DNA from: Dehalococcoidia bacterium UBA5748
GTDB taxonomy: Bacteria > Chloroflexota > Dehalococcoidia > Dehalococcoidales > UBA5627
Direction of reading: 5' to 3'
Assembly: GCA_002419135.1 (NCBI GenBank)
Contig: DIFM01000038.1
Span: forward strand, 1,922 to 65,921
DNA: 64,000 bases
The notes below the pieces were generated by a model. That model was given only the letters and a program-made list of their open reading frames with translations, was not told the origin of the DNA and made no database searches. How positions within the stretch are numbered: the stretch's first letter is position 1; the number at the start of each line of letters is the position of its first letter. This document shows positions 8,982-60,590 of this stretch, one piece after another. The translations under genes were made by a program, and so were the position numbers.

Positions 8982-9175
8982 GTAGCACCTCTCCTTACTA
9001 TAGTACTTAATTATTGCATATAATTTTTAAGCGCGCAATGGATTTTGTCTATTATATTCAAAATTTAATACAAGGCATGACAGCTAACACACCATATCTT
9101 CCAAAGGTGAATATAAGAGGTAAAAAGGTTGTTTATTTTCCTATATCCAATCTTAGCTTGGTTAACACCCGACTT

Positions 9176-9613
9176 TTAAACACAGTCGACTTCTTTCTGG
9201 CTCAATATCTTAATACCGGCTTTTTGCAATGCAAGAATACTGCCTTCCGTATCCGATGGACGAATAATGACACATGCTTCTTCAATATTGCTCCGGTAGA
9301 ACGAATAACTGTATTCAATGGAAATATCCGCTTCATCCAGAGCAGCCATCACTTTCGCCAGCCCCATAGGTTTATGAGGCACGCGAACGCAGATAACTCT
9401 ATTAGTCTTGGCTATATAGCCGGCTTGATGCAATACATTCAGAGTACTTTCTATGTCATCGCTTTTCACAATAATGCGTACTATACCGAAACCGCTGGTA
9501 TCCGCAATAGTAAGCGCCAGCAGATTGACTTCATTTTCTCCAAGTAGTTCTGTCATATTACGCAGTGCACCGCGTACATTTTCCAAAAATACCGAAATCT
9601 GCGAAATAAACAT
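9176..9613 (-). CDS. ACT-domain protein
   Basis: Tandem ACT-like pattern (MFISQISVFLENVRGALRNMTELL…). I prefer the ATG at 9613 preceded by AAGGAGG. The track ORF start at 9694 would overlap paaK. Confidence 0.8.
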   Translation of the reverse strand: MFISQISVFLENVRGALRNMTELLGENEVNLLALTIADTSGFGIVRIIVKSDDIESTLNVLHQAGYIAKTNRVICVRVPHKPMGLAKVMAALDEADISIEYSYSFYRSNIEEACVIIRPSDTEGSILALQKAGIKILSQKEVDCV

Positions 9614-9614
9614 A

Positions 9615-10913
9615 TCAAATCCTCCTTTTATCCACGACGCGCTTTGACTTGCCTTCCGAGCGCGGCAGGGAACGGGGCGGGACAAGCTTAACATCAGCCT
9701 GGATTCCTACTACGGATTTAATCTGAGAAGCTATAGAGTTTTCCAGAGCTTGAATCTGGCTTATGGTATCAGAGAACATATCCTCGGTCAATTCTACATG
9801 TACTTCCAGATTATCCAATGAAGCCCGGCGGTCGACAATAATGAGATAGTGGGGCGTTATACCGCTAACCAGCGCCAGAACGGACTCAATCTGTCCTGGG
9901 TAAACATTTAACCCCCTGACCACCAGCATATCATCGGTACGCCCCGCCAGACGGCTCATTCTCAGTGTGGTACGCCCGCAGGGGCATGGTTCGTTATTCA
10001 GAGCGCAGATGTCACGGGTGCGATAGCGCAGCATTGGCTGCCCTGTTTTAGTAATGGTAGTCATCACCAATTCGCCTGTTTCGCCGTAGGGCAAAGACTT
10101 CCCCGTTTCAGGATTCACCACCTCTGCGATGATATGGTCTTCGTTTATATGCAATCCTTTTTTAACCTGACATTCAAAAGAAACCCCCGGACCTGCAATT
10201 TCGGATAAACCGTAAATATCCAGAGCATCTATCCCGAATAATCCCTCCAGTTCTGCCCGCATCTTCTCACTCCAGGGCTCGCCTCCGAAGCAACCGCCCC
10301 TCAATTTTAACTGCGACAGTATACCCATATCCCGCGCCGTTTCTCCCAGATAGATAGCATAAGACGGAGTGCAACACAAAATGGTCGTTCCCAGCTCTTT
10401 CATCATAATTATCTGCCTCTGGGTATTACCGCTTGACATCGGAATTACCATGGCACCTAACCGCGACGCTGCCTGATGCAAGCCCAGTCCGCCGGTAAAC
10501 AGTCCGTATCCGTATGCAACCTGAACAACGCTGTTTGTATCACACCCTGCCGCAGCCAAAGCGCGTGCCGCCATCTCCGTCCAAACCTCTATATCGTTTT
10601 CCGTATAGCCGGTGACTATGGGATTACCGGATGTGCCGGAAGAGCCTTGAATGCGCACTATTTGTTGTTGCGGAACCGCCAGCAAACCGAAGGGGAATCC
10701 GTCGCGAAGGTCATTCTTTTCCATAAACGGAAGCAGGTGCAAATCGTCGATGCCGCCGATATCCTCCGGCTTGACACCGGCTTTATCCATGCGCTCTCGA
10801 TAAAACGCCACATTGTCAGATTCGTGCTTTACAATTGCCCGCAATCTTTCCGACTGCAGTTTTTTTCGCTCATTCCTGCTGATACTTTCCATAGCAGGAT
10901 TCAAGATGCTCAT
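9615..10913 (-). CDS. paaK: phenylacetate--CoA ligase family (PaaK / F390 synthetase-like)
   Basis: 432 aa. AMP-binding signature GSSGTSGNPIV and overall PaaK-like sequence. The usual ACT-domain partner lies immediately downstream. Confidence 0.9.
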   Translation of the reverse strand: MSILNPAMESISRNERKKLQSERLRAIVKHESDNVAFYRERMDKAGVKPEDIGGIDDLHLLPFMEKNDLRDGFPFGLLAVPQQQIVRIQGSSGTSGNPIVTGYTENDIEVWTEMAARALAAAGCDTNSVVQVAYGYGLFTGGLGLHQAASRLGAMVIPMSSGNTQRQIIMMKELGTTILCCTPSYAIYLGETARDMGILSQLKLRGGCFGGEPWSEKMRAELEGLFGIDALDIYGLSEIAGPGVSFECQVKKGLHINEDHIIAEVVNPETGKSLPYGETGELVMTTITKTGQPMLRYRTRDICALNNEPCPCGRTTLRMSRLAGRTDDMLVVRGLNVYPGQIESVLALVSGITPHYLIIVDRRASLDNLEVHVELTEDMFSDTISQIQALENSIASQIKSVVGIQADVKLVPPRSLPRSEGKSKRVVDKRRI

Positions 10914-53506: not shown

Positions 53507-54313
53507 TTATTTCTGGCAGTTGGGGCAGAAATAGGTGCCGCGCTGGTGTACTCTGATGCGTTGTAATGGAGTCCGGCATACAGGGCAGGGTTTATCCTTG
53601 CAGTGGGCGACCTTGAACTGTTTATGAGCGCTGCCTGTTTCTCCGTCAGGTCTGAAGTAGTTGGTAACGCTGGCACCCTTGTTCCTGATTCCCAGCTTTA
53701 AAACGTCCCGTATGGCTTTATGCAGCGTTTTGATTTCCTCTTTAGAGAGCGAGTTAGCAGGTCTTTCTGGGTGGATTTTTGAGGCAAATAAGGCTTCGTC
53801 GGCGTACATATTGCCGATACCTGCAATCAGACATTGATTTAATAAAATCCCTTTAATGGCAGTCTTTCGATTATTAAGCAGTCCTGCAAATGCCTCAACC
53901 GTGAACTCATCACTTAACGGCTCGATACCCAGTTTCCCCAGCAGGCAGTCGCAGTCCTTTACCAGTTGCATCTTTCCGAACTTACGCGGGTCGTTGAAAT
54001 AGATTTCGGTGTCGTTATCCAGATGAACTATGGCGCGGGTGTGGGGCGGGGGATTATTATGCCCCAGCATCAGCGAACCGCTCATTCTCATATGCATAAC
54101 CAGTTTATATCCGCTTTCGAGGTTAAAAATAAGATATTTGCCGCGCCTGTCCATGCCGCTTATCTTCTGACCTTTTATAATGCGCTCGAATTCCTCTTTG
54201 GCGGGATGCTGCAGCGTTCGCTCCCAGAGCAGCGTCACATTTATAATACTTCTTCCTGCGACATAAGGTTCGAGGTCGTTTTTTATGGTTTCGACTTCAG
54301 GAAGCTCAGGCAT
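53507..54313 (-). CDS. mutM: formamidopyrimidine-DNA glycosylase
   Basis: MPELPEVE N-terminus, H2TH region, C-terminal zinc finger CPVC…CPNC. Confidence 0.9.
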   Translation of the reverse strand: MPELPEVETIKNDLEPYVAGRSIINVTLLWERTLQHPAKEEFERIIKGQKISGMDRRGKYLIFNLESGYKLVMHMRMSGSLMLGHNNPPPHTRAIVHLDNDTEIYFNDPRKFGKMQLVKDCDCLLGKLGIEPLSDEFTVEAFAGLLNNRKTAIKGILLNQCLIAGIGNMYADEALFASKIHPERPANSLSKEEIKTLHKAIRDVLKLGIRNKGASVTNYFRPDGETGSAHKQFKVAHCKDKPCPVCRTPLQRIRVHQRGTYFCPNCQK

Positions 54314-54918
54314 TTTATATCTCTTTTCATTACATATTTATATGAGATTACAGCAGGAATAATTATAAGTATTCCTATTATAAGGCTGGAGAAGACATCG
54401 CTTAACCAGTGCTGCTCCAGATACAAGCGGGAAAATCCAACCGCTACGATTACCAAACCGGCTACGATTTGCAGCGCAATACACCAGGCTTTATTTTTAA
54501 CGACCCGCGGCAGGAAATAGATTATCAATCCTAACAGAATAGAGGTATATATCGTATGTCCGCTGGGGAAACTGTTTTGCAAAGAATCCTCTAAAGGTCT
54601 CGGTCTGTCGATAAGAAACTTTAAGATATAACTGATGGATACGCCGATATATGGTACGCCAACGATAAACAACGCTTCGATTTTCCTGTCAAACAACCAG
54701 AATATCAATCCTGCAATCAGACTGGCAATAATACAGTAGGGGAATGCACCCAAATATGAGATAAATGGCATAGATGAGTCAAAGAATGGAGATTGAATAT
54801 TGCTTATCCGGTTATTAACCGCTATATCGCCGGGGAAGCTCATACCGGAAACAACGGCGATGGTGATTAAGACCAGAAGGACAAGCAGCATTAGATAAGC
54901 GATGCGAAATATGCTCAA
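54283..54918 (-). CDS. PAP2-family phosphatase (membrane)
   Basis: Motifs KFLIDRPRP, SFPSGHT and SRLYLEQHWLSDV. 31-nt overlap with mutM. Confidence 0.85.
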   Translation of the reverse strand: MSIFRIAYLMLLVLLVLITIAVVSGMSFPGDIAVNNRISNIQSPFFDSSMPFISYLGAFPYCIIASLIAGLIFWLFDRKIEALFIVGVPYIGVSISYILKFLIDRPRPLEDSLQNSFPSGHTIYTSILLGLIIYFLPRVVKNKAWCIALQIVAGLVIVAVGFSRLYLEQHWLSDVFSSLIIGILIIIPAVISYKYVMKRDIKCLSFLKSKP

Positions 54919-54921
54919 AGG

Positions 54922-57651
54922 CTACTCCATCTGCCCCCAGTTCTTGCCGGCCTTGGTTTCAACTTTTAATGGAATGCTGAGCTTTATGGCTTCCGACATC
55001 TCTTTTACCGCCAGCTTGCGCATCTTATCCATTTCATCATCGGGGACTTCGAAAATAAGCTCATCGTGTACCTGCAACAATATAGAGCTTTTCAGCTTAA
55101 GCCTTTCCATTTCTTTATCCAGTTTTACCATAGCCACTTTTATGATATCGGCGGAGGTTCCCTGAACTGGCATATTGATTGCCATACGCTCGGCGGCTTC
55201 ACGCAGGTTGCGGTTGGATGAATTGACTTCCGGAATTAGCCTTTTCCTGCCCAGAATCGTCTGCACATAGCCGGCTTCTCTTGCCTGTTTCTTCGTTTCT
55301 TCCATATATTCTTTAACACGCGGGTATTTTTCGAAATAGGCGCTGATGAACTTTTCCGCTTCCTCGCGATTAAACTCGGTAGCCTGTTCCAGTCCGTAGC
55401 CGCTCATGCCGTAAATGACGCCGAAGTTGACGGTTTTTGCCAGACGCCGCATATCGGCAGTGACTTCGCCTTTATCCACTCCGAAGAGCCTGACAGCAGT
55501 ATCGGTATGAATATCTCCGTCGCCGGCGAAAGTCTCGAGTAACTCCGGGTCTTTCGATAGATGAGCCAGCGCCCTCAAATCGATTTGCGAATAATCAGCC
55601 GATAATAATTGATAGCCGGGCGGGGCGATGAACGCCTGTCGGATTTCCCTTCCCGGTTCTCCGCGCACCGGAATGTTTTGCAGGTTGGGGTCGCTGGATG
55701 ACAGCCTGCCCGTGGTGGTCTTGGTCTGGTTGAAGCTGGTATGCAGTCGTTTGGTTTTGGCGTTAACCATCTGGGGCAGGGCATCGACATAGGTCGATTT
55801 GAGTTTGGTTAACTGGCGATATTCGATAATGAGTTCTATAATCGGGTGCTGTCCTCTTAATTCCTCCAAAACTGAGGCATCGGTGGAGAATCCGCTCTTG
55901 GTCTTGCGCGCCGACGGCAGTTTCAGGTCTTGAAATAAAATCGGGCTTAACTGCTGTGTCGAATTGATGTTGAAACGCCGTTTTGCCTGTTCATAGATAT
56001 CTTCTTCCAGTTCCAATAGTCTCTTGCTGAGCCTGGCCGATATTTCTGAAAGCAGGTTAATATCCAGCGCAATTCCTTTTAGCTCCATTTTGACCAGAAT
56101 CGGCGCCAGCGGCATTTCCACATCGGCAAAGAGCCTCCATAGTTCCTGTTCTTTCAGTTCTGCTGTGAATAGTTTATCCAGCCTGCCGGTGTTGTCCGCA
56201 TCGGCGCAGGCATATTTACCGGCAACGGATACTTCCACCTGTGACATATTGATTTGCTTCTTGCCGGTACCGATAAGCTCGGTGATATCCGCCATCTCGA
56301 TATCCAGACGGTTAAAAGCGAGCGCTTTCAAGCCGAGAGATTTCTCTCCCAGAAGGTATGCGGCGACCATAGTGTCGGAAACAAGATTATTAACGCTTAT
56401 GCCGTACTGCGCCAGAATCTCCATATCGAACTTGGCGTTATGGGCAATCTTTTTTATCCTTTCATCTGCAAAAACGTGCTTTAGCTTTTCGATAACCTGT
56501 TCGACCGAAAGCTGTTGAACCTGTTCCCAGCCGATATGCCCTACGGGAATATAATATGCCTCTCCGGTTTCGGGCGATATGGAAATGCCTACCAGTTTAT
56601 CGGACATTGTATTTAGTCCGGTGGTCTCGGTATCGAAAGCAAACGAGCCTTTCTCTTCCAATCTTTTTTCCAGTTTATCAAGGGCTTCAATGGAACAGAT
56701 GATGTTATATTTAATCTCGACTTTTTCTGACATATCGAAGCTGAGTTGCGGGCAGGCTGCTTTATCAGGCTTTGCGCTTTCTGCTCCCGGAAGCCGCGAA
56801 AGCAGTTTGGTAAACTCCAGCTCATGGAAGAAAGCTACTGCCTTATTGCGGTCGAAGTTGTTTATATCGGATTTATCGAGGTCAAGCTCAATCGGCATAT
56901 CACGGGCAATGGTTGCCAGAACCTTGCACTTACGCGCGATTTCTTCGCTTTGCTGCAATTTTTCCTGCAGTTTAACGGGGGTTACTTCGTCTATGTGCTT
57001 ATATATGTCTTCAACCCCGCCGAAGGTTTGAATCAATTTAACGGCGGTCTTATCGCCGATGCCGCTTACACCGGGGATGTTGTCCGATTTATCGCCCACC
57101 AGCGCTTTTAAGTCGGCGATATGTTCGGGAGGCACGCCGTACCTGTCGTTTACAGTCTGCGCTTCGTACAGAATGGTATCGCCGAAGGAGCTTTGCGGTT
57201 TGGGATAGAGCACTTTTACGTTATCCGATACCAGCTGCATTGCGTCGGCATCTCCGGTAACGATAACGCTTTCGATTCCCTGTTCGCTGGCTTTTTTACT
57301 GAGCGTGCCGATAACGTCATCGGCTTCGTATCCGTCCATTTCGAAGATGGGGATATTAAAAGAGGCTGCCAGTTCCCGGGCTCTTGCCAGCTGGCTGACC
57401 AAATCATCAGGAGTAGTGGGTCTATTAGCCTTGTAATCGGCAAACATTTCCTTGCGAAAGGTGGGAGCCTTGCGGTCGAAAGCGACGGCATAGTAATCCG
57501 GTTTCAGTTCATTCAAGATTCTAATCAGCATATTGGCGAAGCCGTAAATAGCCTGGATTGGCTCACCTGTTTTTTTAACAGTCAGGGGCGGCATGGCATG
57601 ATAGGCGCGGTGCACAAGAGCATTGCCGTCAATCAGTAGTATCTTTTTCAT
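54922..57651 (-). CDS. polA: DNA polymerase I
   Basis: 5'-nuclease N-terminus (MKKILLIDGNALVHRAYHA), 3'-5' exo ExoI FAFDTETTGL, polymerase motifs LSADYSQIDLR, RRLAKTVNFGVIYG and QVHDELIFE. ATG at 57651 preferred over the track start at 57684. Confidence 0.95.
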   Translation of the reverse strand: MKKILLIDGNALVHRAYHAMPPLTVKKTGEPIQAIYGFANMLIRILNELKPDYYAVAFDRKAPTFRKEMFADYKANRPTTPDDLVSQLARARELAASFNIPIFEMDGYEADDVIGTLSKKASEQGIESVIVTGDADAMQLVSDNVKVLYPKPQSSFGDTILYEAQTVNDRYGVPPEHIADLKALVGDKSDNIPGVSGIGDKTAVKLIQTFGGVEDIYKHIDEVTPVKLQEKLQQSEEIARKCKVLATIARDMPIELDLDKSDINNFDRNKAVAFFHELEFTKLLSRLPGAESAKPDKAACPQLSFDMSEKVEIKYNIICSIEALDKLEKRLEEKGSFAFDTETTGLNTMSDKLVGISISPETGEAYYIPVGHIGWEQVQQLSVEQVIEKLKHVFADERIKKIAHNAKFDMEILAQYGISVNNLVSDTMVAAYLLGEKSLGLKALAFNRLDIEMADITELIGTGKKQINMSQVEVSVAGKYACADADNTGRLDKLFTAELKEQELWRLFADVEMPLAPILVKMELKGIALDINLLSEISARLSKRLLELEEDIYEQAKRRFNINSTQQLSPILFQDLKLPSARKTKSGFSTDASVLEELRGQHPIIELIIEYRQLTKLKSTYVDALPQMVNAKTKRLHTSFNQTKTTTGRLSSSDPNLQNIPVRGEPGREIRQAFIAPPGYQLLSADYSQIDLRALAHLSKDPELLETFAGDGDIHTDTAVRLFGVDKGEVTADMRRLAKTVNFGVIYGMSGYGLEQATEFNREEAEKFISAYFEKYPRVKEYMEETKKQAREAGYVQTILGRKRLIPEVNSSNRNLREAAERMAINMPVQGTSADIIKVAMVKLDKEMERLKLKSSILLQVHDELIFEVPDDEMDKMRKLAVKEMSEAIKLSIPLKVETKAGKNWGQME

Positions 57652-57820
57652 AGCCTTATTATAACAGACCGGGGGAGAAGGCATTTAGATATCTGCCTTA
57701 CGACTAAATGATGGATTTTTAATTTTCAATCAGCGTAAATAATTTACTGTTAAAATATGCGTAACAGCATTTCTTCCCTTTTAACTTTTATTTTAGTGGA
57801 TATATTAGGTGTATTTGCTA

Positions 57821-58675
57821 TTAATTCCCTTTGCATAATTGGGGTTCCTGTGTTTTTAAATAACATTGACTACATTGAGGTTTGCTTTTGGTACATATTG
57901 CTCCTTGATATTCAGCACAAAATATCCAAATAACACTGTCAATGTATTTGCGAGATTCTGTTAGTGTGTCCGCAATAGTGATGCCAATTTGTCTGACATC
58001 TTTTTGTCTTTGAGACACTTTTATCTTTGTTTGATCAAGGTTAATCTTATTAAAAAAGCGGATCGTATGCGCATCGGGCTTAAACTCATCTATGCCTATA
58101 TTATTAAAAAATTCACAACATATAGATAAACGAACATTCCGAAGTTTATAATTACTAATAGGGTCTGTGAAACATTTTATCAAAGAGTCAGCTTTTGCGC
58201 GGACATAACAGTTATTAGCATTATCATATGCTGAATTATTTAAATGACTTGATATCAAATTACAAACCGATCCGTGCTTTATGATAATGTGTTGAAATAT
58301 TTTTGCGTTATCGCGGATAGAAAATAATTCATCTTCAAGGAATCTTGCCTTTACTTGACTCTTGTACTTAGTATAAAGACTCGTCATATAGCTATCAGTT
58401 AGTGTTGCAACCGTATTTATATTATAATTGCATAAATCTATCTTCAGTGGCTGTAAAATATTTTGTATAGAAGACCACGTAGCTTGTCTTGATAAAATAG
58501 CTTTACTTAGCCCTTCTAAAATATCTGAATCACTTCTTTGGCATGAATGAGGATATAATTTAATATTTTTTAATACATTCGGTTTTAAAGTATTAAGCGT
58601 TTTATTAATACGGTCTATTAATATTCTACAATCTGATACCGAATACACATCAATATTCATATTTATCAACTCCAT
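57821..58675 (-). CDS. divergent HhH-GPD superfamily (endonuclease III-like) protein with Fe-S cluster loop
   Basis: …LSKAILSRQATWSSIQNIL… (ILSQxT-type helix). …FKPDAHTIRFF… (the vDtHvxR catalytic-Asp context of Nth-like enzymes). C-terminal CTKSKPQCSQCYLKTQEPQLC (C-x7-C-x2-C-x9-C). Strongly AT-rich (line 58201-58260 has 15/60 G+C). Confidence 0.55.
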   Translation of the reverse strand: MELINMNIDVYSVSDCRILIDRINKTLNTLKPNVLKNIKLYPHSCQRSDSDILEGLSKAILSRQATWSSIQNILQPLKIDLCNYNINTVATLTDSYMTSLYTKYKSQVKARFLEDELFSIRDNAKIFQHIIIKHGSVCNLISSHLNNSAYDNANNCYVRAKADSLIKCFTDPISNYKLRNVRLSICCEFFNNIGIDEFKPDAHTIRFFNKINLDQTKIKVSQRQKDVRQIGITIADTLTESRKYIDSVIWIFCAEYQGAICTKSKPQCSQCYLKTQEPQLCKGN

Positions 58676-58714
58676 ATTATATTATTAAAACCTGTATTAT
58701 TTTCTGATTTGCTA

Positions 58715-58999
58715 TTAACCTACAGTTTCCTCTTTTTCACTTCTATCTTTCATTAAAGCCAAAGGCAACAGACCTATCGGGGTTAAAATGCCGAAAAACA
58801 TCCATGCCCAGTGCCTGTTCTTTAACTTTGCCCACAGATAGCATCCATATAAGGACAATCCTAAACCGAGTGCAGCTAAAACAAAATGTAATGGCACAAT
58901 ACCTAAACCCAATGAAATACAATAATTTGCCGATACATTAGCAAACCACCAGATTAACCACCCGAAAAACACTGATAATGTCCTTGCTGTCGTTCCCAT
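58715..58999 (-). CDS. small 3-TM membrane protein
   Basis: 94 aa, three hydrophobic helices. AAGGAG SD. Sits between the WYL regulator and the HhH-GPD gene on the same strand. Confidence 0.5.
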   Translation of the reverse strand: MGTTARTLSVFFGWLIWWFANVSANYCISLGLGIVPLHFVLAALGLGLSLYGCYLWAKLKNRHWAWMFFGILTPIGLLPLALMKDRSEKEETVG

Positions 59000-59057
59000 T
59001 TAAACTCCTTTTTATTTGTGTTAATTGATTTCATTAACACTTTTCGGACATTATCGT

Positions 59058-60059
59058 TTACTCTTGCGACACCCCTGTGTCAAAAACTCTATCCCTCCTT
59101 GTAAATTTTTTGCATTTTTTTAGCGTATCGATTACCTTTGCACGGATTTCTTGCGGTTCGAGCACTTCGACTTTTTCTCCCCATCCCAAAATCCATGAAT
59201 AAAAATCCTGGGTATCGGTAATATTTAGCGTCATTATCATTGAGCCGTCGGCTTGTTTTTCCAAAACCTGGGAGGGGTGCCAAATGGTTTCTTCCATGAT
59301 TTTCATAATAGTGGTGTCTTTAATCCTGAGTTTTATTGTTTTTACTTCTCCGCCGGTGATAATTCCCCAAGATGCCCCGAAAAATTTATTAGCGTCGAAA
59401 TCATCTCGAACCTTATAGTGTTCATCTGTAAGTTCTGCTGATTTTATGCGCTCTAATTTAAAGGTGCGCACAGCATCCTTCAAGTGGCAATATCCGATAA
59501 CATAACAGGCATGGCCAGGTGCTGCCGGTTCGATAAAATACGTGTCGATCATGCGTTCATTCGGTTCTCCAGCCGCCAGCGATTGATAAAATATTTTCAG
59601 CTGACGCTGTGAAATCCACGCTTCGGCTATTGTGGATAGAATCTTTTGATATTTTTCATCTTTGGGGAGTTTATGCATCCATTCCATCGTTTTATTAACC
59701 TGCTGGGAAAGGGCAGGCGGTAATACTCCATTCAGTTTTGTAAATGCGGTCTCTATATAAGGGTCGTAGCGGTTTGAATAATTCAACATCAGGCGTGCTG
59801 CCAAAAATATGTTCAATGCTTCAGTGGGAAGGAATCGTATCGGCGGCAAAAAGCTGCCTTCGGCTATTTGCCATTTTTGCCCGGTATTGAATACGGGAAC
59901 TTTTAAATCGGTTCCGAGCGATATCATGTCTCTGTAAATAGTTCTGACATCAACATCGAATTTATCGGCCAATTTTCTTGCGGTAAAGCCATCAGGATTG
60001 TTAGCTAAAAGAATCCAAATCATGCTAAGTCTTTCGGTTTTGGGTAGCCTGTCGCTCAC
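59058..60059 (-). CDS. WYL-domain transcriptional regulator (HTH-WYL-WCX; BrxR/CapW-like architecture)
   Basis: N-terminal HTH (…FTARKLADKFDVDVRTIYRDMISL…). Central WYL-type domain (…IDTYFIEPAAPGHACYVIGYCHLKDAVRTFKLERIKSAE…). C-terminal …WILGWGEKVEVLEPQEIR…. GTG start behind AGGAGG. Confidence 0.85.
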   Translation of the reverse strand: MSDRLPKTERLSMIWILLANNPDGFTARKLADKFDVDVRTIYRDMISLGTDLKVPVFNTGQKWQIAEGSFLPPIRFLPTEALNIFLAARLMLNYSNRYDPYIETAFTKLNGVLPPALSQQVNKTMEWMHKLPKDEKYQKILSTIAEAWISQRQLKIFYQSLAAGEPNERMIDTYFIEPAAPGHACYVIGYCHLKDAVRTFKLERIKSAELTDEHYKVRDDFDANKFFGASWGIITGGEVKTIKLRIKDTTIMKIMEETIWHPSQVLEKQADGSMIMTLNITDTQDFYSWILGWGEKVEVLEPQEIRAKVIDTLKKCKKFTRRDRVFDTGVSQE

Positions 60060-60072
60060 GCAAACCTCCTGC

Positions 60073-60111
60073 AGTAATATCTGGTGAAATTATATCACTT
60101 AGTATATTACT
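60073..60111. promoter_or_regulatory. nested inverted repeats upstream of the WYL regulator (candidate operator)
   Basis: AGTAATAT (60073-60080) and ATATTACT (60104-60111) flank an inner GTGAaattatatCAC, 14-52 nt upstream of the GTG start. Confidence 0.3.
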
Positions 60112-60223
60112 AAAAAATAGGAAAAGTTTAAATTACAGATATTTATATGGATTAATTTTGACGATGGGTTGTCAGAGCACGCTTGTATAATTAACTTAAA
60201 AAATGGGTTACAGGAGAAAAGAA

Positions 60224-60325
60224 ATGAATGATACGATTATCAATGAAATTTACGAGGAAATACTTGAAGACGACATAGATATCTATAATGAGAAGAATAA
60301 ACCGGAATGTATATATGCCAATTAA
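60224..60325 (+). CDS. possible 33-aa acidic micro-protein, divergent from the WYL regulator
   Basis: MNDTIINEIYEEILEDDIDIYNEKNKPECIYAN. AGGAG about 8 nt upstream. Extended -10 TGTATAAT at 60184-60191. Confidence 0.25.
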   Translation: MNDTIINEIYEEILEDDIDIYNEKNKPECIYAN

Positions 60326-60440: not shown

Positions 60441-60590
60441 ATGGGAAAGGGTTCTTCAGGACCGGCTCTGGGTGGGGCAATCTGGTTTATCGGGTGGCTG
60501 TTCACCATCGGTTATGCACATCTGGTATGGTGGAAAATAATACTCGGCATCTTTGTCTGGCCTTTGTTTTTGGGGCAATATCTGGGATAG
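60441..60590 (+). CDS. possible 49-aa two-helix membrane micro-protein
   Basis: MGKGSSGPALGGAIWFIGWLFTIGYAHLVWWKIILGIFVWPLFLGQYLG. GGAGGG 4 nt upstream. Below the 60-aa ORF-track cutoff. Confidence 0.4.
   Translation: MGKGSSGPALGGAIWFIGWLFTIGYAHLVWWKIILGIFVWPLFLGQYLG

Follow-up and report, generated by a model that had tools for sequence, protein, structure and literature searches.

A stretch of 64,000 nucleotides from Dehalococcoidia bacterium UBA5748 (assembly GCA_002419135.1, contig DIFM01000038.1, positions 1,922 to 65,921 of the forward strand; called the window here and numbered from its first letter) carries, directly upstream of polA, a WYL-domain transcription factor, a gene for a small membrane protein and a gene for a helix-hairpin-helix (HhH) DNA glycosylase-like protein. 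The three minus-strand open reading frames (ORFs) picked out in an earlier, sequence-only reading of this DNA were found again at 57821-58675, 58715-58999 and 59058-60059. Comparison with related loci, structure modelling and promoter analysis suggest that the glycosylase-like gene is an inducible base-excision defence cargo and not a housekeeping repair gene, a proposal from sequence and model that is given about an even chance. The genes and the two conserved operators are listed below; locus L045 is the closest relative.

57821-58675, minus strand: HhH/iron-sulfur (Fe-S) DNA glycosylase-like gene, the swapped cargo of low guanine-plus-cytosine (GC) content (ORF of 284 amino acids, aa)
58715-58999, minus strand: small membrane protein of 94 aa (the 3-TM protein, for three transmembrane segments), first gene of the P_b transcript (hydropathy; orthologue in L045)
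59058-60059, minus strand: transcription factor of HTH-WYL-WCX architecture, 333 aa, GTG start (Pfam; synteny in L045)
59050-59083, minus strand: operator and promoter P_b, TTGACA (59083-59078)-CAGGGG-TGTCGC (59071-59066)-N10-GATAAT (59055-59050), conserved in L045
60157-60191, plus strand: operator and promoter P_a, the second copy, TTTGACGATGGGTTGTCAG-N10-TATAAT, facing away from the regulator

The composition of the cargo gene sets it apart. GC content is 0.29-0.33 across 57600-58800 versus about 0.46 in the flanks; the glycosylase gene has 31.0% GC and 0.25 at third codon positions (GC3), and polA 48.6% and 0.56. The dip that the sequence-only reading had noticed is real (31% versus 44%), and its count of 15 G or C in the 60 nucleotides of 58201-58260 is exact. 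The gene lies 13 points below its genome, and glycosylase genes are lower in GC than their flanks in 17 of the 17 loci compared. Translation probably begins at the ATG at 58660, which is preceded by a GGAG Shine-Dalgarno sequence, and not at the start of the 284-aa ORF; the resulting 279-aa protein has the same length as database entry P0001. No tRNA or Rfam element was found near the cassette, which therefore gives no sign of being a tRNA-linked island.

A glycosylase-like family with a predicted Fe-S loop

Modelling followed by structure search gives the 284-aa protein a confident HhH DNA glycosylase fold. The AlphaFold2 model, built with 29 homologues, has a mean predicted local distance difference test score (pLDDT) of 92.6 and a predicted template-modelling score (pTM) of 0.90. 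When the model was compared with the PDB by Foldseek, all matches at E <= 0.001 were HhH DNA glycosylases, as were nearly all of the top 30. MjOgg (3knt, E 2.4e-4), EndoIII (1orp, 7.7e-4) and Tag (4ai4, 8.5e-4) matched best, followed by MutY, and the glycosylase matches had a probability of 1.0 and template-modelling scores to the target of 0.63-0.70. In sequence searches, phmmer with the protein alone found nothing in the PDB, PF00730 (HhH-GPD) was not matched, neither NCBIfam (E <= 1) nor PHROGs returned a model, and the match to Tag (PF03352) stayed below threshold (15.4 bits versus a cut-off of 25, E 0.017, residues 59-156 only).

The endonuclease III-like landmarks read from the sequence, an ILSRQATW helix and the KPDAHTIRF context of a catalytic Asp, are conserved across the family, and D201 is invariant in both the 29-sequence and the 50-sequence alignment. 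The hairpin and Asp region has the form x-V181-G-L-A...G194-I-D196-E-F-K199-P-D201-x-H203 and is of the "GPD" type, with the Asp about 20 residues past the HhH motif. Invariant in the family alignment are D196, K199, D201, W250, C261, C268 and C271, all of which the window protein retains; C16, C156, C186, C187, C253, C281 and H203 are nearly so. The hairpin of the window protein reads N-V-R, whereas most members have x-V-G. The spacing first given for the Cys loop, C-x7-C-x2-C-x9-C, was wrong, the actual series being C253-x7-C261-x6-C268-x2-C271-x9-C281. In the clade of the window protein the loop C261-x6-C268-x2-C271-x9-C281 compares with C-x6-C-x2-C-x5-C in Nth, and Fe-S binding is predicted from this Cys pattern; members of the wider family have exactly the C-x6-C-x2-C-x5-C spacing of the Nth/MutY type, together with weak matches to EndIII_4Fe-2S (PF10576) and Tag. 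The four near-invariant cysteines outside the loop (C16, C156, C186 and C187) may form a second metal site.

Motif, profile and threshold tests place the protein close to Ogg2, Tag, Nth and MutY and outside all four. A profile of 50 wider-family sequences matches two PDB proteins of the same two-domain HhH fold significantly, MjOgg at E 2.2e-9 over nearly the full length and Tag at E 4.7e-8; the same profile reaches E 0.028 with Escherichia coli EndoIII, over a span from the Asp to the Cys loop. The MjOgg alignment (Ogg2; 3knt/3fhf) pairs D201 with the catalytic Asp147, whereas the position of the catalytic Lys129 is Ala or Leu. The catalytic Lys of Nth is likewise missing: the hairpin is followed by L or A (GVGLAICC), and nothing aligns with Nth Lys120 or MjOgg Lys129. 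Tag is distinguished by the lack of a catalytic Asp and by a zinc "snap" motif of Cys and His that joins the termini, whereas the window family has its invariant Asp. The family also adds a C-terminal Cys loop absent from both Ogg2 and Tag, with which it shares 13-16% identity. The motif KPDxHTIRFLNR resembles xVDTHIFRVxNR of Nth, but the last Cys spacing is 9 instead of the 5 of Nth and MutY, four extra cysteines are conserved, and, besides Lys120 and PF00730, the NUDIX-like domain of MutY is absent, the protein ending 3 residues past the last loop Cys. These features suggest a monofunctional-type HhH glycosylase with a predicted Fe-S loop, both the activity and the metal binding being predictions from sequence and model.

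The close family is rare. A set of 5.8 billion proteins yielded 42 relatives, and all of these that are assigned to an organism belong to Chloroflexota/Dehalococcoidia metagenome-assembled genomes; the glycosylases share 42-56% identity. Among 185,579 species-representative genomes the family is present in 2, each from Dehalococcoidia, and metagenomes supply 31 loci; the window protein itself is found in identical form on 4 contigs. A phage-borne origin was considered and rejected, since the viral contigs of IMG/VR hold no relatives.

The wider family is much larger and includes fusions. When 1.84 billion cluster representatives were searched with a profile, 641 clusters passed E <= 1e-3 and 303 passed E <= 1e-10; no Pfam or NCBIfam model covers them. 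P0239 (L048 6001-8484, 827 aa, a stand-alone gene) joins an N6-adenine methyltransferase and a type-I-like specificity domain (target recognition domain, TRD) to a C-terminal glycosylase domain; from its domain order it looks like a type IIG enzyme in which a base-excision domain replaces the nuclease. P0235 (539 aa) joins AbiJ_NTD4 to the glycosylase domain, and its N-terminal part matches the PADLOC candidate PDC-S32 at E 2.5e-112. DUF7225 precedes the glycosylase domain in P0204 (420 aa), and an uncharacterised N-terminal region of 530 aa does so in P0267 (740 aa).

Several members differ in length from the window protein. Those of 390-400 aa (P0002, P0004, P0012) carry two helical modules of about 45 aa past the Fe-S loop (alignment columns ~317-470), with the consensus NPxGAAxRFxECNLTRxEAxxKMxxAGL...VYG, and those of 470-530 aa end in another kind of C-terminal domain; both additions are missing from the window protein. 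A distant clade of 345-aa proteins (L025-L042, for example L026 7695-8732) shares 31-36% identity, has an N-terminal extension of about 100 aa and lacks a WYL neighbour; some of its members have uvrB, recR/dnaX or toxin-antitoxin genes in the vicinity.

Cargo replacement and the recurrent neighbourhood

Comparison with L045 reveals a change of cargo at a fixed chromosomal position. Both loci have the order OTCase, DUF4342, rhodanese, two small ORFs (sm49 and sm33), WYL regulator, 3-TM gene, one cargo gene, polA, PAP2 and mutM. Alignment by blastn yields two blocks, window 60604-58730 at 81% and window 57770-53481 at 85% (L045 5705-9994), and the unaligned segment between them is the glycosylase gene. 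At this place L045 has an unrelated 402-aa gene, also of 31% GC, a remnant of which survives in the window:

57730-57785, minus strand: relic of the last ~15 codons of the L045-type 402-aa gene, the right-hand junction of the replacement (alignment)

Homology resumes inside the 3' end of the 402-aa ORF (window 57640-57860, minus strand, against L045 5660-5870). The relic lies downstream of the glycosylase gene, and therefore the glycosylase displaced the 402-aa gene, recently, in the lineage of the window. The cargo slot downstream of P_b thus turns over by horizontal replacement, and the horizontal acquisition that the sequence-only reading had argued from composition is supported by both the low GC content and the exchange at the same site relative to a close relative.

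The displaced gene belongs to a family, A3, represented by L045 4537-5745 (P0303, 402 aa) and L049 8523-9152 and counting 50 members in Chloroflexota. A3 has a conserved N-terminal domain of about 210 aa with an HhH-plus-Asp-like motif, GIxKIxDxTADYYRVLVGLPDAVKVD. HhH glycosylases are the sole recurring matches of its model with a probability of about 0.2 or more, all at E >= 1 and non-significant, and hhalign of the L045 402-aa cargo against the glycosylase family was negative.

The same comparison bears on polA. A recruitment of the glycosylase to a polA-PAP2-mutM repair cluster had been entertained; L045 has the unrelated 402-aa gene beside polA, and the glycosylase family elsewhere is never found there. 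Since polA retains its own conserved promoter box (TGTTATAAT) just upstream, and since no other family member adjoins polA, the adjacency is coincidental. No convincing terminator was found between the glycosylase gene and polA. The start of polA is probably the ATG at 57651 of the minus strand (MKKILLIDGNAL...) and not 57684; its orthologue in L045 has 909 aa.

The regulator and the glycosylase recur together elsewhere. A WYL orthologue lies directly upstream of the glycosylase, in the same direction, in 13 of about 18 informative independent loci (the window, L002, L004, L005, L011, L013, L017, L020, L021, L023, L032, L033 and L047), and these orthologues are 50-64% identical, above the 42-56% of the glycosylases themselves. 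The proposed tie between the two genes is therefore physical in the 13 loci, and conserved operator sites predict that it is also regulatory. The idea that the three genes form a unit did not survive: a search of all fetched loci with seed proteins found the 3-TM gene in no other glycosylase locus. The only recurrence of the 94-aa protein is an 87-aa orthologue in L045, with no homologue in the 44 other loci so searched and no match in Pfam, NCBIfam, PADLOC (E <= 1) or PHROGs. That it is a membrane protein holds, with two to three hydrophobic segments in place of the three helices first counted. The 3-TM gene is resident with the regulator and is not part of the cargo.

In the usual layout a divergent operon encodes a Cdc48-like single AAA ATPase, a small membrane protein and a CxxC zinc-ribbon protein, and the WYL gene is followed by a variable gene, RNase_H_2 (PF13482), the glycosylase and PDDEXK_1 (Cas4-like) or DUF2779. 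The variable gene may be an uncharacterised 458-aa gene, PDDEXK_4/PDC-S26, a toxin-antitoxin pair or Nmad3. At L009 the trio of RNase_H_2, glycosylase and Cas4/DUF2779 occurs without WYL, and L020 and L023 have WYL-glycosylase pairs without RNase_H_2 in between. The occupant of the slot also varies: L046 has a 332-aa uracil-DNA glycosylase (UDG)-like protein between WYL and RNase_H_2 (9050-10048; a weak match, E 3e-4), L047 a glycosylase-family member of 530 aa, L049 an A3 member directly after RNase_H_2, and L050 proteins resembling PDC-M15A and PDC-S11. Neighbours of defence type include PDC-S26, a ZacB-like PLD protein and ScoMcrA_N at L011, a TIR-like protein at L007, GmrSD/HEC-05 and PDC-S18 at L020, DUF559 nucleases at L013, and two toxin-antitoxin pairs with Nmad3 at L001.

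In the window, the place of the AAA ATPase/small membrane protein/zinc-ribbon operon of other genomes is taken by the two small ORFs that follow P_a:

60224-60325, plus strand: sm33, an acidic ORF of 33 aa with an AGGAG Shine-Dalgarno sequence, first gene after P_a (conserved in L045)
60441-60590, plus strand: sm49, a single-pass membrane protein of 49 aa, second gene after P_a (conserved in L045)

The WYL regulator and its operators

The regulator matches HTH_11 (E 4.6e-7), WYL (5.2e-15) and WCX (1.1e-16) of Pfam, all above the cut-offs. Its nearest solved relatives are DriD (E 8e-8) and PafC/PafBC (2e-6), then CapW, matched over the WYL domain at 1e-4; BrxR gave no match at E <= 0.01, and PADLOC returned only generic WYL models. 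The sequence-only reading had likened the protein to the BrxR/CapW regulators of phage-defence loci; the HTH-WYL-WCX architecture is as it described, and the special likeness gives way to DriD and PafBC as nearer relatives. At least 540 relatives of orthologue level (E <= 1e-60) occur in Chloroflexota/Dehalococcoidia, a group far larger than the glycosylase family, and the L045 orthologue is syntenic and 84% identical. The regulator is resident and vertically inherited. At L001/L012 2069-3056 the WYL gene is split into two ORFs in the NCBI assembly, and at L002 2070-3056 it is intact in the ENA version of the same contig; the difference is probably a single indel of assembly or sequence.

Two conserved palindromes mark the regulated promoters of the window, at 59066-59083 and 60157-60175. 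Each belongs to a composite pattern in which the palindrome TGAC-N7-9-GTCA places its promoter-proximal half-site exactly 10 nucleotides upstream of a TAnnnT -10 box. The half-site and box (TGTCAC, N10, TAnnnT) recur at both site positions, a TGn extension is frequent, and across the loci these promoters have no -35 hexamer. P_b shares sequence with the final codons of the WYL gene and faces the 3-TM and glycosylase genes. Wherever the region upstream of WYL is available, a palindrome of the form (T/G)TGACA-N5-7-TGTCA(C/A) lies in the divergent intergenic region and faces the AAA operon, and most loci have a second copy within about 10 nucleotides past the WYL stop, facing the cargo genes. Sites of the P_b type follow the WYL stop directly in L002, L004, L005, L011, L013, L017, L021, L032, L033, L045 and L046. 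The equivalent of P_a, in the same orientation, faces the AAA-ATPase operon in L002, L004, L005, L011, L013, L046 and L047 and the small ORFs in L045. The composite pattern occurs twice in the 64-kb window against an expectation of 0.25, a count of 2 being reached by 4 of 100 shuffles. No further full composite motif points to a wider regulon in the window, where matches to the half-site only occur at about chance frequency.

This geometry is that of known damage-responsive activators. PafBC recognizes tGTCgg(N10)tA(N3)T, the "-26 element" of sigma adaptation (PMC8635444), SiwR also uses the -26 position (PMC10693628), and the DriD site is ATACGAC(N7)GTCGTAT (PMC12041258). As sequence geometry, the window sites resemble both, with a GAC-N7-9-GTC palindrome and GTC-N10-TAnnnT without a -35 element. 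DriD (Caulobacter) and PafBC/SiwR (Actinobacteria) also share the HTH-WYL-WCX architecture of the window regulator. They differ from it in phylum and by low identity (E 1e-7 to 1e-6, in WYL and WCX only), and the window regulon is local, with two promoters, and not genome-wide; activation of these promoters would follow by analogy.

The repeats that had been proposed as operators in the earlier note are not the conserved sites:

59018-59040, minus strand: 8-bp inverted repeat GTGTTAAT-n7-ATTAACAC, created by a 24-nucleotide insertion found in the window only
60089-60097, minus strand: the regulator's own extended -10 promoter TGATATAAT, free of palindromes (L045 has TGCTATAAT there)

The 8-bp inverted repeat exists as described (GTGTTAAT at 59040-59033, n7, ATTAACAC at 59025-59018). 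The 24-nucleotide insertion that creates it sits between the -10 box and the Shine-Dalgarno sequence. The repeat was rejected as a WYL operator: L045 lacks it, and it is too near the start codon for the conserved promoter type. In the P_b transcript it would fold into a hairpin at the predicted 5' end (-8.7 kcal/mol, z -3.8). The nested palindromes upstream of the regulator, at 60073-60111, were set aside as operators too, not being conserved in L045.

Activation of the PafBC/DriD kind is moderately favoured over derepression. The alternative, somewhat short of an even chance, keeps the same cargo and makes the WYL protein a repressor of the BrxR/CapW type, its palindrome over the -35 region blocking RNA polymerase until single-stranded DNA (ssDNA) releases the protein. 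CapW and BrxR are reportedly homodimeric repressors that bind palindromes, and CapW is said to sense ssDNA. The palindrome spans about -41 to -23, and many P_a and P_b promoters have a TGn extended -10 box, which needs no -35 element and fits repression as well as activation. The fixed N10 between half-site and -10 box, as in PafBC-activated promoters, the missing -35 element and a regulator sequence nearer to the activators all speak against repression.

Defence, repair and other readings of the cargo

As a defence cargo, the locus might work as follows. The regulator would sense ssDNA arising from DNA damage or infection, by analogy with DriD, PafBC, SiwR and CapW, for which ssDNA binding by the WYL domain is established, and would then switch on P_a and P_b. 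More of the small membrane protein and of the glycosylase would be made, and the glycosylase would flip out and excise a non-canonical base, most plausibly a modified base of phage type. The resulting abasic sites would block replication or give rise to breaks. In most other genomes, degradation of the DNA would then fall to the adjoining RNase-H-like and Cas4-like exonucleases; these partners are absent from the window, so host enzymes would have to act.

A target in foreign modified DNA is favoured by the patchy distribution, AT-richness and turnover of the gene, by its defence-type neighbours, by the fusions to restriction-modification (RM) and abortive-infection (Abi) domains, and by the pairing with exonucleases. 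The WYL-controlled defence module of the sequence-only reading draws its support from these neighbours and from the wider-family fusions, and it stays a proposal of about even probability, preferred to accessory repair. Several observations weigh against it. PADLOC models gave no match at E <= 1 for the glycosylase, and no recognised defence system was found downstream of the window regulator (PADLOC; no BREX or CBASS nearby). Many of the "defence" neighbours belong to candidate families (PDC-*) or are weak matches, and the usual partners, exonucleases and glycosylases, would suit DNA repair just as well. RNase_H_2, the Cas4-like gene and the AAA operon are missing from the window, whose module is thus a reduced one. 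The regulator is closer to the damage activators DriD and PafBC than to CapW and BrxR; it sits on the chromosome in a syntenic position and is widespread, as a core regulator of the damage response would be, and many of the P_a and P_b promoters have extended -10 boxes open to both modes of control.

Glycosylases with a role in immunity have precedents. Brig1 and Brig3 are glycosylases of the UDG superfamily that act against phages with modified bases. The Dag glycosylases, which belong to the HhH superfamily, defend against 7-deazaguanine phages; they are rich in AT, are found close to mobile or defence genes, and have structures that fall near those of Tag and archaeal Ogg (Getz et al., bioRxiv 10.1101/2025.10.29.685425). 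Both the Dag and the Brig defences consist of a single gene. The window family is Dag-like in its HhH fold, AT-richness and mobile or defence neighbours, a comparison made with published descriptions. The catalytic layout of Dag1 (K118, D184, W188) does not map onto the window family. Dags are carried as integron cassettes and have no regulator of their own, and an Fe-S loop, WYL control or exonuclease partners have not been reported for them. The R.PabI restriction glycosylases, which make base excision the "restriction" step, offer a parallel to P0239, as do type IIG enzymes, with which P0239 shares the order of methyltransferase and TRD, a glycosylase replacing the nuclease; R.PabI has the HALFPIPE fold and not HhH, and the window protein has no methyltransferase partner. 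On the regulatory side, DdaA, an activator of the WYL class, governs damage-response genes as well as defence genes (PMC12392091). The likeness to BrxR and CapW lies in a WYL protein at the head of variable, exchanged cargo and in an ssDNA or DNA-damage cue; the difference lies in the missing BREX or CBASS and in a promoter architecture that argues for activation.

A broader form of the defence reading is tentative and carries clearly less weight. It holds that WYL, an RNase-H-like exonuclease, an interchangeable base-recognition enzyme and a Cas4-like nuclease make up a hitherto undescribed, ssDNA-induced "base-excision restriction" system of Dehalococcoidia. The glycosylase, A3 or UDG-like protein would then be a swappable specificity module, and the window, equally tentatively, a minimal version in which a newly acquired glycosylase would act by itself under an activator of the PafBC/DriD type.

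WYL-headed defence or damage loci, defence glycosylases and the HhH fold are already known. What appear to be new are the Fe-S HhH family without a Pfam or NCBIfam model, together with its fusions; the conserved WYL-RNase_H_2-glycosylase-Cas4-like module in Dehalococcoidia; an operator code like that of DriD and PafBC outside Proteobacteria and Actinobacteria; and a documented cargo swap at a fixed chromosomal slot. If the defence reading is true, an uncatalogued Fe-S HhH glycosylase family, of about 640 clusters when grouped at 50% identity, joins the still small, growing group of glycosylases that serve as immune effectors, and its methyltransferase-fused members look like type IIG enzymes with a base-excision domain for a nuclease. 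Chloroflexota would have a testable WYL operator and promoter code that combines the DriD palindrome with the -26/-10 geometry of PafBC, which suggests that activation of the "sigma adaptation" kind is not confined to Actinobacteria. The locus would also offer a clean natural case, between close relatives, of cargo replacement at a regulator-headed chromosomal slot, with at least one further uncharacterised family (A3) in the same slot. Glycosylases specific for modified bases would, in addition, be useful reagents for mapping DNA modifications.

The strongest rival account of the cargo is damage-inducible accessory repair, which outlives the discarded recruitment to the polA cluster and is on balance unlikely. 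Here the WYL protein would be an SOS-independent, ssDNA-sensing activator, a counterpart of DriD and PafBC, and the glycosylase would remove a lesion from the cell's own DNA. With equally modest probability, the regulon would comprise the small membrane proteins, possibly division inhibitors like DidA, and the glycosylase, the exonucleases found elsewhere processing the intermediates. DriD activates didA, which encodes a small membrane division inhibitor, and both promoters of the window likewise command small membrane proteins. The nearest solved relatives of the regulator are DriD and PafBC, its promoter geometry is identical to the -26/-10 motif of PafBC, its palindrome resembles that of DriD, and the regulator is widespread and syntenic. 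The glycosylase family, for its part, has the repair enzymes Ogg2 and Tag as sequence relatives and a distant clade near uvrB, recR and dnaX. A repair role sits poorly, however, with the extreme patchiness of the glycosylase (42 relatives; 2 of 185,579 genomes), with a GC content under that of the flanks in every locus, and with its exchange for unrelated genes at the same site between close relatives. The neighbours are repeatedly restriction- or Abi-like, fusion with an RM methyltransferase or an Abi domain is seen among distant members, and two exonucleases in the absence of an abasic-site endonuclease, polymerase or ligase point to degradation more than to repair.

That the gene is a catalytically inactive or decaying passenger, left after the loss of its partner nucleases, is improbable. 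It would account for the absence of the RNase_H_2, Cas4-like and AAA genes present at most loci and for the N-V-R hairpin in place of the usual x-V-G; the ORF is nevertheless intact, D196, K199, D201, C261, C268, C271 and W250 are all kept, the structure model is confident, pairs of WYL and glycosylase without RNase_H_2 also exist at L020 and L023, and the identical protein is found on 4 contigs.

An ordinary housekeeping orthologue of Nth, COG2231 or Tag belonging to a polA-mutM repair neighbourhood, as the HhH fold and the adjoining polA, PAP2 and mutM might imply, is barely credible and was rejected: the protein falls below every curated threshold (Tag at 15.4 versus 25 bits, no HhH-GPD or NCBIfam match), is not encoded at the syntenic locus of L045, occurs in only 2 of 185,579 species genomes and is encoded at a GC content 13 points under the genome.

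The PAP2 phosphatase-mutM stretch itself (window 53507-54918, minus strand) is compact, PAP2 starting 4 nucleotides past the end of polA and overlapping mutM by 31 nucleotides, and the same tight order of polA, PAP2 and mutM is kept in L045.

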